Below are positions 36,001 through 39,000 of a stretch of 64,000 nucleotides of DNA, piece by piece (within the stretch, counting starts at the first letter, position 1; every line of letters begins with the position of its first letter). Source of the DNA: a virus (Duplodnaviria; Heunggongvirae; Uroviricota; Caudoviricetes); the IMG/VR virus record IMGVR_UViG_2713896799_000023, one strand, 5' to 3'. Made by a program: the position numbers.

Positions 36001-39000
36001 GACAGTAACTGACGCTGAGAAAAACGCGGCGTGGATCCATGATCGTTTTTCATCGCTGTGGTGTTAATTTCATTTTTCATCAGTGTGCCATCCAGTGTGT
36101 GGTTCTGCGTTTATCCGTTTTCTGTTTTACCCTCACCGGCATTCTGGCGCGCATCTCCTGGGCAATCATGTAGCTCATGAGCTGATCATCAAAGCAGCCT
36201 TCCTGTGCATTCATGGAGCCTTTCGCGTCATAAACGTAGGTGTTCATTTCCGATAATGTGCCTGACCAGCGGATCCCTGATATTCCATTATTCAGAAGCG
36301 TTTTCATTCCTTCGGTCAGAACAGGTTTGCTCTGACGGGTTGTCAGCCAGCCAAGGCGGGGCGTATCGTCGTCATATGCCTGGTCAAGATGCTGTTCGTT
36401 GTAGATATAACGTGTCGGATAGAGTTCCCGGAGTTTCAGGATAACTGCATGTCCGTGATTATTACGCTCCGGCCCCACAAACGCGTTGTTATACATACGA
36501 CAGACCTGCGAAATGAGATGAGCAAAAAGTTCAGCATCGAGATGCCCGAACCAGTGAGCCACCTGCTCGCCATTACTGCGTTTGACAACATCCAGCGATG
36601 AGCGGTCTCCGTGCTCCAGCCCTTCGGCAGTATCTGCCCCACAAACATACTCTTCATCCGGATCCGGCAGTTCCCATACCAGCAGATAATTCATCAGCGT
36701 CCGCTGCAACTCGTTTTTATTTCCTTCACGCAGAGACTGAGCTTTAGTCTTCGCTCCTGTAACAGGTTCAATGTCATAAACAATCATCGGTGGCGAACAG
36801 AATGATTCTGCCTGCAACGTACTTTCGGCACTGAACACACGTCGTCCGGACGTCAGAAACGCCTCCTGTGGCGTTGAGGGAAACTCCTGCTTCATTTCCT
36901 CACGCTGTTCAGTTTCCTTATTGATGTACCACTGCTTCTGTTCATCAGTAAGCGTGATGTTCATTGCCTTCTCAACCGCAGAAAAATACGTCATTTTTTC
37001 CCGTGACAGCTTCAGCCCGCTTTCCGGCACTCTGGCGCTGTATTTAGGATCCTGCCACCAGGCGTAAAAATGGAATTTATAATCCTGTGCCGTCAGCAAT
37101 AAGCCTGATGCAGTGATCTCCTGTGCTCGGTTACTCATCTCGTAAAAATCACCACCCACGCCTTCAGCAGTGGACTCATCAAAAATAATGCATTCATCAG
37201 AGACGGCATTAAGCGTACCGGTTCGCAGTTCTTTCGCCTTAGCCGGATATTTCGCGCAAATTTTGCCGTGCTCTGAGATATGCAGGCGCTGCACCGTACC
37301 TGAACGGAATGAGGTTGCCACCTGGATACTCGAGCCGTGACCAAACAGGATATAGCCACCGCTGGCACCGCTACGACGTTCAACGATGGTGAATGAGGCT
37401 CTCAGCCAGTCAGGGAGATGATCAAACGGTACAGCAATTTTTGTGCGGAAAATTTCACTGGCAGCCTGTTTATCCTGAGCGACGATCCCGCATTTGAGAT
37501 GCGGAATGAATAATGCCTGGTCGAGAAGATAAATATCAATGGCTGTGGAAAATCCCAGCTGGCGCGCTTTCAGGATAATATTTTTATTGTGCATGCTCCG
37601 GAACAACTGGCGCTGCGCCGGTCGCATTCTGAAGGTGACCAGTTCACCTTTTTCGTTCTGTATTTTGTAGAGATGATTGAGCCGCCACCAGGGATTGCTC
37701 AGTTTAGTCATGATGAACAGACGTTGTTCAGCCTCGGTCATTTCTGACGGCTCATCACATCGCGGTTCATTCTTCCGGAATGTCATCCAGTCTCCCCGAA
37801 TTACTCATTTCATGCAGCGATGACACGATGTCACTGACAGGCGTAACAACGCCCCGACGCTGGCTGGTCAGAATATCGGTTTCCGCTCTGAGTTTATCTC
37901 TGGCGGCGTTGATTCTTTCCCGGTCAGCACGAAGTTTTGGTGCTGTCTCAGCCAGGACGTCCAGCGTCAGCAATGAGCGTTCAATTGACTCGATACGGGC
38001 AATATTCCGGTCAAGGGCCTGTTCAGCTTTGAGTATTTTGTCGTAAAGAGCAACGCGGGTTTCCACGTCAGTTGCCTCTTCCAGGTCGGCGAACATCCCT
38101 TTAAGTGCCTTAGTTACTGAAAGTGCGCGGGCCCGGGTGAACACCAGTTCATCGAACAGCACCATGTCGGACGCATCATCCATGAGGTTATCTGCCTCAA
38201 GATACTTCGCATATCCACGGTGTCTTACGGCGTGGGTGTTTCGCTGAGAAAAAGCGTTTGAAGGTGGTAAAAGTCGGGAACCACGAATCCGTTTCGTTTC
38301 TGCCGAATTTGCGCAGTTTTTTTCAGAGTTTTTTGCGCATTTTTCATCGCCGGAACCCGCGTCATTGCAGGGTTCTTCATCTGAGATGTCATGATCGATT
38401 TCATGATCGGTTTTATGATCAATTTCATGATCGATTTTGCCCATTTTTATACGGGTTCTGGCGGTGTTGTAATTAATCTTTTTCTTCCGGCACCAGTCCA
38501 GTAATGTTATTCCCGTTTCGGCATGTTCGCGTCGGAATGCCTGCTCCAGCTTTTTCCAGTCCAGCTTTGCCATGTCACTTTCTGACGTCCTGTGTTAAAA
38601 ACTGATGCATAATGACCGCTGTGATTTTTCAGATTTCACACAGCAGCACCATATTTGATCGATATTTGCACAATGCGGTTGTTTTATCCGGTTTCTTCCA
38701 CCACCGCACCGGACAGGCGGCTTCGCGGGAAATCGCTCCCATCTCGTGAAAAATGAGAAAACCCGGTGTGCATCGTTTTTGATTATCCCCGCACACTCAC
38801 GCAGATAAGGTGGCTGCAGTCTCTGTTAATGCGGGAATACGGCGACGATACGGCGCATGGCTATGTCAGGCTGAAATGCCTTTATCAAATCCGGGTAACG
38901 CAATCTGCCCCTGCTGCTCCAGCCTGTCCAGCCTTGCCAGCAACTGAGGCTTCTTCACCCTGCCCCAGCGATTGAGCAAACGACCTGACATACTGGCGAC

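Follow-up and report, generated by a model that had tools for sequence, protein, structure and literature searches.

A GATC-bearing hexamer array in the small terminase gene of an O104:H4-type Stx2a prophage, a candidate recognition element of the packaging site

A tandem array of four GATC-containing hexamers was found inside terS, the gene for the small terminase subunit (TerS), of a Shiga toxin (Stx) prophage represented by IMG/VR virus record IMGVR_UViG_2713896799_000023, of which a stretch of 64,000 nucleotides (hereafter, the window) was analyzed. The window is an O104:H4-type Stx2a prophage. From comparison with related phages, the array is interpreted, with a probability of roughly 55%, as the part of the packaging site (pac) that is recognized by TerS, as the GATC version of an array that recurs throughout this terminase family, and as the counterpart of the pac site of phage P1. 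The evidence comprises the anatomy of the array, the retention of the hexamers among relatives in different reading frames, and the relationship between the N-terminal domain of TerS and that of the P1 small terminase PacA.

The hexamer array within terS

A preliminary description of this DNA had reported four TGATC(G/A) sites in tandem repeats of about 12 bp inside terS, encoding an (I/T)DH(E/K/D) peptide repeat, and these sites were confirmed by script and by Tandem Repeats Finder. On the plus strand, the hexamers are TGATCG (38392-38397), TGATCG (38404-38409), TGATCA (38416-38421), and TGATCG (38428-38433), and can be summarized as TGATCR, or as YGATCA on the minus strand, which is the coding strand of terS. 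Tandem Repeats Finder reported a 12-bp unit at 38385-38437, with 4.4 copies, 82% matches, and a score of 78. The array is in frame within the minus-strand open reading frame (ORF) 37767-38573, encodes the peptide IDHE-IDHK-TDHE-IDHD, and occupies nucleotides 141-182 of the gene, immediately following the segment for a helix-turn-helix (HTH) domain. The start-to-start distance of the four hexamers is exactly 12 bp, in agreement with the regular spacing first described, but the accompanying statement that this is about one helical turn did not hold: because 12 bp exceeds the helical turn of ~10.5 bp, each hexamer is turned by ~51 degrees relative to its neighbour, and the hexamers are not aligned along one face of the DNA.

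The array is real and non-random. The window is poor in GATC, with 172 occurrences observed versus ~250 expected from length alone, and the array is the sole place in it where four GATC sites fall within 60 bp; three phased TGATCR hexamers were obtained in none of 100 dinucleotide-preserving shuffles. The GATC sites nearest to the array are located at 38657 (upstream) and 37484. The former belongs to a lone TGATCG (38656-38661), 83 bp upstream of the terS start, which was considered as a part of the system and rejected, since the identical sequence is found in a phage whose array consists of TGCGCA hexamers (L046, see below) and is therefore not tied to the GATC array. When counted in 4-kb bins, GATC sites are unevenly spread over the window, with 26 in 48001-52000, two in 40001-44000 (the lysis region), and one in 60001-64000, a distribution consistent with the GATC-free regions reported for Stx prophages (PMC6602927).

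Further downstream in terS, two TGCGCA hexamers (Table 1) are contained in a second 12-bp tandem repeat (38308-38344; TTTGCGCAGTTT, 3.2 copies) and encode the odd Cys-Ala pairs of ‘EKCAKNSEKNCAN’. The second of these hexamers immediately precedes an ETKR motif that is kept by most relatives (Lys94 is nearly invariant); it is found in phage 933W too, and the 33 bp around 38310-38315 are common to 189 phage records. The ‘N-C-A’ element at this hexamer is present in most of the enterobacterial relatives examined, including those of E. coli, Citrobacter, and Salmonella (L095), and is missing or changed in Salmonella L089/L090 and in Aeromonas.

Hexamer arrays in related terminase genes

An array of either TGCGCA or YGATCA hexamers is located right after the HTH-coding part in all of the DNA-level relatives examined except Pectobacterium L097, which has neither hexamer and in their stead carries TTCGCAA (twice) and ATCGCAA. 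Most relatives use TGCGCA, among them those of E. coli (L046, L048, and L057), Citrobacter (L094), Salmonella (L095), Serratia (L096), and Aeromonas. Of the TGCGCA occurrences found over 3.8-6.9 kb in the TGCGCA-type loci, nearly all are confined to ~90 bp (six of seven in L001). YGATCA is used in three sublineages, i.e., the Stx-phage lineage, Salmonella L089/L090, and a metagenomic phage (L102, nucleotides 2501-3250); the last is a distant phage with a P22-like portal, in which five TGATCA hexamers are spaced at exactly 12 bp and a sixth lies 48 bp downstream. Mixed arrays also exist, in that L046 and L048 hold one TGATCA unit in register among TGCGCA units, and TGCGCA stands ahead of the GATC units in L089 and L090. 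A-rich flanks are common to both hexamer types, and the spacing between hexamers across the family peaks at 9, 10, 12, and 14 bp, with a mean near 10.8. The same N-terminal HTH and a hexamer array were additionally found in a small terminase of the Terminase_2 family (PF03592; L103, nucleotides 2501-3301), in which TGCGCA is present at gene nucleotides 137, 149, 163, and 170 in two reading frames. Most likely, the array in the window is a GATC form of the TGCGCA array seen across the family.

Constraint at the DNA level

The hexamers appear to be conserved at the level of DNA rather than of peptide. TGCGCA occurs in all three reading frames, as xxT-GCG-CAA (Ala-Gln), G-TGC-GCA-A (Val/Leu/Met-Arg), and TGC-GCA (Cys-Ala). 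Synonymous codon choice was counted in 49 distinct linker sequences, with ORFs of the same loci as controls; the sequences are related and the counts are therefore not independent. For Ala-(Gln/His) in the linker, GCG is used in 90% of cases and the preceding codon ends in T in 92%, versus 23% and 23% in the control ORFs, and for Asp-(His/Gln) GAT is used in 89%, versus 29%. Comparison of TerS with its L046 relative points to a local exchange that affects helix and array together: identity amounts to 90% over residues 1-30, only 50% over residues 31-46, where the recognition helix lies, and 12% over the array, but 98-100% over residues 151-268.

Homology between TerS and PacA of phage P1

In a comparison by hhalign of profiles built from 39 TerS relatives and 22 PacA relatives, TerS residues 5-47 were aligned with PacA residues 2-44 over 43 columns, with 95.1% probability and an E-value of 3.4e-8. 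PHROG cross-matches are reciprocal (TerS to PHROG 1711, which is PacA, 3e-5; PacA to PHROG 370, 1.9e-4), BLASTP of TerS against PacA gave an E-value of 0.009, and the N-terminal motif ‘NLNPNTARRYLR’ of PacA resembles ‘KINYNTARTRIK’ of TerS. Judged from these profiles, the N-terminal HTHs of the two proteins are homologous, beyond mere resemblance, and the homology is limited to the N-terminal domain.

The P1 hexamers occupy the equivalent position. They start at pacA nucleotides 193, 200, 212, and 227 (span 193-232) and at 323, 335, and 346 (span 323-352), directly after the HTH-coding part, and the two clusters flank the annotated site for integration host factor (IHF) and the cut sites. They encode M-I-I-D-H-S-N-D-Q-H-A-G-D-H in the first cluster and N-D-R, D-D-H, and V-I-T in the second. 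PacA relatives down to 29% identity retain D-Q and D-H runs after the HTH, and a PacA homologue at 37% identity retains two TGATCA clusters, in two reading frames. The likeness to P1 pac noted in the preliminary description is accordingly borne out by the PacA-homologous HTH, by the position of the hexamers, and by the shared Asp-His/Asp-Gln dipeptides. P1 pac, with its HEX4 and HEX3 clusters, was reportedly characterized by Sternberg and Coulby. P1 pac comprises 161 bp within pacA and includes seven TGATCA/G hexamers with Dam sites, and synonymous recoding of the hexamers lowered the titre ~9-fold (PMC10028697). According to earlier proposals, hemimethylated P1 pac is bound and further methylation promotes cleavage (reported in PMC10028697).

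Distribution and copy number of the array

The region is 100% identical to that of Stx2a phage P13374 from the 2011 O104:H4 outbreak and to those of many other Stx phages, and gene L0112 of 933W has the same four hexamers (682 of 684 nucleotides identical). Among 5426 complete E. coli genomes, 386 contain the array. It is a variable-number tandem repeat, with its units arranged head to tail: one (P0020), two (P0016), three, four, five (P0025 and L041), or seven (P0001/L098) of them were found in near-identical terS genes, and the seven-unit allele shows an exact 36-bp duplication. Identity over the array is at least 99% in 350 of 387 E. coli records and 90-95% in 17; two listed of those 17 (H78 and H79) match 159 of 171 query bases, which corresponds to one unit fewer. 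The proposal that the site is prone to slippage is supported: the repeat slips, with one to seven units, yet four units strongly predominate, being present in about 90% of carriers.

A scan of genome contigs yielded Aeromonas relatives only, together with one likely contaminant contig. The 368-bp contig NZ_JPLE01000258.1 (L006), deposited as Xanthomonas pisi, matches the 3′ end of this E. coli Stx-phage terS at 100% identity and is probably an assembly contamination.

TerS and the packaging module

The coordinates of the array and of the surrounding features are listed in Table 1. Over its full length (residues 1-268), the terS product matches PHROG 370, ‘terminase small subunit’ (E-value 3.8e-125), and it has no Pfam match. 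In the AlphaFold model, helices at residues 6-20, 24-31, and 35-41 form the predicted HTH and a long helical hairpin is predicted at residues 130-237; for residues 48-116, the per-residue confidence (pLDDT) is below 50, and the overall template-modelling score (pTM) is 0.40 because of this disordered linker. The linker is the most variable stretch of the TerS family alignment, and, since the array encodes it, the hexamers lie where protein constraint would be weakest. Fold and sequence searches of the PDB with TerS returned generic coiled-coil matches only, none of them significant. The gene order on the coding strand was confirmed as terS, terL (large terminase subunit), and the gene for a P22-like portal, with an overlap of 20 nucleotides between terS and terL (37767-37786). 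The portal marks the surroundings as a packaging module of the headful type.

Table 1. Features of the packaging region in the window (positions in the 64,000-nucleotide stretch)
Feature	Position	Strand	Remarks
Proximal hexamer array, four 12-bp units	38385..38437	minus (coding)	candidate TerS recognition element of pac
Distal TGCGCA hexamer 1	38334..38339	minus	gene nucleotides 235-240; Cys-Ala codons in ‘EKCAKN’
Distal TGCGCA hexamer 2	38310..38315	minus	gene nucleotides 259-264; ‘N-C-A’ element
Spacer, proximal array to distal hexamers	38340..38391	minus	possible first-cut position, by analogy with P1
terS, small terminase subunit, 268 aa	37767..38573	minus	PHROG 370; annotated as terS in P13374
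TerS N-terminal three-helix HTH, aa 1-46	38436..38573	minus	AlphaFold helices; hhalign to PacA family
Putative recognition helix, aa 35-41, ‘YNTARTR’	38451-38471	minus	AlphaFold helix 35-41
Predicted disordered linker, aa 48-116	38226..38432	minus	pLDDT <50; holds both hexamer groups
terL, large terminase subunit, 568 aa	36080..37786	minus	PHROG 2 and PHROG 24361 matches; annotated as terL in P13374
Portal protein, P22-like	33936..36080	minus	Pfam PF16510, E-value 5.9e-127

Upstream of terS, a further element was observed at ~38606-38632 (coding strand CTGTGTGAAATCTGAAAAATCACAGC), the core of which, GTGAAATCTGA, is retained in relatives from E. coli and Salmonella. Short inverted arms are part of the element, for which no Rfam, promoter, or terminator call was obtained; the remaining intergenic region diverges among the relatives.

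Proposed role of the array and alternative explanations

In the proposed mechanism, the array would constitute a row of binding sites for the HTH of the phage’s own small terminase, contained in the coding DNA of the disordered linker, which directly follows the HTH domain. TerS oligomers would load onto the hexamers of concatemeric DNA and, once loaded, recruit TerL. TerL would introduce the first cut close by, perhaps in the spacer that separates the array from the distal pair of TGCGCA hexamers if P1 is taken as the guide. Headful packaging would then run through the P22-like portal. The four sites would be Dam-methylated in a dam+ host, and binding or cutting would therefore be likely to be affected by the methylation state, as in P1; this is the least supported step of the scheme.

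The main rival is that the segment is a neutral, low-complexity linker, i.e., a slippage-born repeat serving as a flexible tether, in which GATC is a by-product of the GAT-CAT codons for Asp-His and has no function in cis. Such a linker would be in keeping with the predicted disorder of the segment, with its one to seven copies in otherwise near-identical genes, and with the wide variation of linker length and sequence across the family, and repeats copied from one unit share codons without selection. It would not be expected, however, that the hexamers are kept while reading frame and peptide change, or that an array hexamer persists between hosts with TerS only ~40% identical; moreover, the spacing in Aeromonas and Citrobacter is irregular (9-14 bp) and not that of simple tandem duplication, the synonymous-site bias is large (90% versus 23%), and hexamers of the same kind are proven pac elements in the homologous pacA gene. 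We regard this explanation as rather unlikely. Selection on the protein, under which the (I/T)DH(E/K/D) repeat would bind metal or hold the DNA-binding domain and the oligomerization core at a given distance, is left a slim chance: the unit is in frame and always a multiple of four residues, and the predominance of four units (350 of 387 E. coli records at ≥99% identity) suggests that length matters, but in relatives the DNA hexamer is retained although Ala-Gln, Val-Arg-Lys, or Cys-Ala takes the place of Asp-His, and the segment has no predicted structure and no covering Pfam or PDB match.

A Dam- or SeqA-related element unconnected with packaging, acting through SeqA sequestration on hemimethylated DNA or through tuning of transcription or mismatch repair over the beginning of the late structural operon, would fit the presence of four GATC in 42 bp of an otherwise GATC-poor phage genome, as well as the Dam homologues and GATC-free regions of Stx prophages (PMC6602927). 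Searches of 38200-38900 and 37700-39000 revealed neither promoter-like or terminator-like sites nor a match to Rfam, however, and a Dam-regulated promoter, terminator, or RNA element was rejected on this account; in addition, sister phages with identical flanks have TGCGCA at the array position, and the family-wide array would be left unexplained. This possibility is considered very improbable.

Several observations weigh against a role of the array as the TerS recognition part of pac. Tandem units share codons by descent, so that part of the synonymous-site signal could reflect duplication or relatedness, even if the frame changes and the irregular Aeromonas and Citrobacter spacing seem hard to ascribe to duplication alone. 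Alleles with one to seven units imply some latitude in the number of sites, and most relatives are GATC-free in the array, from which it follows that methylation cannot be essential to the mechanism of the family. Compared with P1, the window has a single exact 12-bp tandem array of four hexamers, and two distal TGCGCA hexamers take the place of a second GATC cluster. The exact IHF consensus (WATCAANNNNTTR) occurs twice in the 64-kb window, each time far from the array, although, given the degeneracy of IHF sites, a search for the exact consensus has little power; TerL shows no similarity to PacB by BLASTP (best E-value 3.7). In the literature searched, no mapped pac or virion ends were found for any 933W-like phage, and a PhageTerm run on one 933W-like phage gave the uninformative ‘Mu-like’ class (PMC7946995).

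A code linking the recognition helix to the hexamer was also considered and rejected. In the initial relatives, ‘ART(R/Q)’ accompanied GATC versus ‘ARR(Y/H)’ with TGCGCA, and the combination of ART(R/Q) with GATC recurs in Salmonella; this was contradicted by L102 (NTARRQ) and P1 (NTARRY), which use GATC, and by P0213 and P0192 (NTARRY), which have Ala-Gln arrays. The helix DNA of the window is nearly identical to that of Salmonella L089, and helix and array are physically adjacent, so that their pairing probably had a single origin and was moved by recombination. The co-variation of helix and array is thus taken as weak support for a pac function.

With regard to the packaging reading in the preliminary description, the arrangement of P1 is reproduced insofar as the hexamers lie in terS after the HTH, but not in the two-sided HEX4/HEX3 layout of GATC or in the IHF site. 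The suggestion of a packaging signal gains comparative support from a hexamer array that is kept by nearly all relatives under apparent DNA-level constraint, but neither a P1-type PacB nor a second GATC cluster accompanies it.

Published and deposited data on packaging in this group were also consulted. 933W serves as a ‘headful’ terminase reference (PMC6029569), and the literature searched contained nothing on packaging elements made of a TGCGCA or GATC array. Record coordinates were tried as a hint to physical ends and rejected: the phi191 record begins inside terL, and that of phi367, which ends 20 nucleotides before the terS stop, has apparently been linearised so as to open with terL and not with a physical end of the DNA. 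The phi367 record carries the feature note ‘circularly permutated genome’, and the accompanying paper is without packaging data.

Methylation and phage-borne methylases

All four sites of the array are Dam targets. Gating of packaging by Dam through the array is a tentative idea, with the odds against it; should TerS read the middle of the hexamer, N6-methyladenine could plausibly have some effect in the lineage with GATC. The title of one study, cited in PMC3089641, describes Dam methyltransferase as ‘required for stable lysogeny of ... 933W’.

Dam homologues specific for GATC, namely M.EcoVT2Dam and M.EcoGV, are known from Stx prophages (PMC6602927). P13374 encodes an MT-A70-family adenine methylase (E-value 5.3e-22) near int/xis, at 2899-3525 of HE664024 and beyond position 64000 of the window. 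Phage records with a copy of at least 95% identity number ~117, and others have the gene in truncated or diverged form; the methylase was rejected as the co-occurring partner of the array, given ~117 records versus 261 that match the terS region. Within the window, a PstI/BsuBI-type restriction endonuclease adjoins an Eco57I-type methylase at ~53060-55479 (HE664024 14603-17022), and the pair is probably the CTGCAG system M.EcoGIII of the O104:H4 Stx phages (PMC6602927).

Implications

Phages of the 933W type are the main carriers of Shiga toxin 2. A defined pac candidate makes the initiation of Stx-phage packaging, generalized and lateral transduction, and phagemid-style delivery directly testable. 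Should the GATC version prove to be sensitive to methylation, it would provide a mechanistic link between Dam and the biology of Stx phages and a second example of epigenetic gating of packaging, which is so far known from P1. The family view further suggests a means of finding pac from sequence only, namely hexamers that occur in three frames within a linker-coding segment beside a homologous HTH. A broader model can be envisaged in which a portable cassette of HTH and array sets packaging specificity on at least three TerS bodies (933W-like, P1 PacA, and Terminase_2-type), is switchable between TGCGCA and TGATCA, and in its GATC version makes packaging initiation in the Stx lineage, 933W and the O104:H4 outbreak phage included, dependent on Dam methylation by the host or by the phage-borne Dam homologues, so that the output of Stx-phage particles would follow the methylation state of replicating phage DNA; this model is speculative and, taken as a whole, unlikely.

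Comparison with known packaging systems

The closest likeness is to P1 pac. In both phages, TGATC(A/G) hexamers are clustered inside the small terminase gene, right after the part that encodes the homologous HTH, and encode Asp-His/Asp-Gln; the spacing in HEX3 is 11-12 bp, compared with 12 bp in the window. Dam targets are present in both, and Stx phages, like P1, can also carry an adenine methylase of their own. The two systems differ in that the P1 hexamers form two clusters (4 + 3) ~130 bp apart with irregular spacing of 7-15 bp, in that three of the four hexamers in the window read CGATCA on the coding strand, an orientation opposite to the TGATCG of P1, and in that TerS outside the HTH and the whole of TerL are unrelated to PacA and PacB.

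Other systems resemble the array in architecture. In cosB of phage lambda, the repeats R3-R2-R1 are bound by the HTH of gpNu1, and an IHF site, I1, is present. The general likeness lies in repeated sites for the N-terminal HTH of a small terminase, adjoining the cut site, whereas the lambda elements are 16 bp long, lie outside coding sequence, and serve a cos system, in which the DNA ends are cohesive. The site of P22 is embedded, like the array, in the coding sequence of the small terminase, and the window phage has a P22-like portal; P22 pac is, however, a single 22-bp asymmetric site within gene 3 rather than a set of repeated hexamers (PMC9611059), and the two TerS proteins are unrelated. 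In the headful phage SPP1, the multipartite recognition region pacL/pacR, at which several TerS contacts flank the cut, is likewise associated with the 5′ end of the small terminase gene (PMC9611059), but with another TerS family, with other repeats, and without Dam sites or an exact tandem array.

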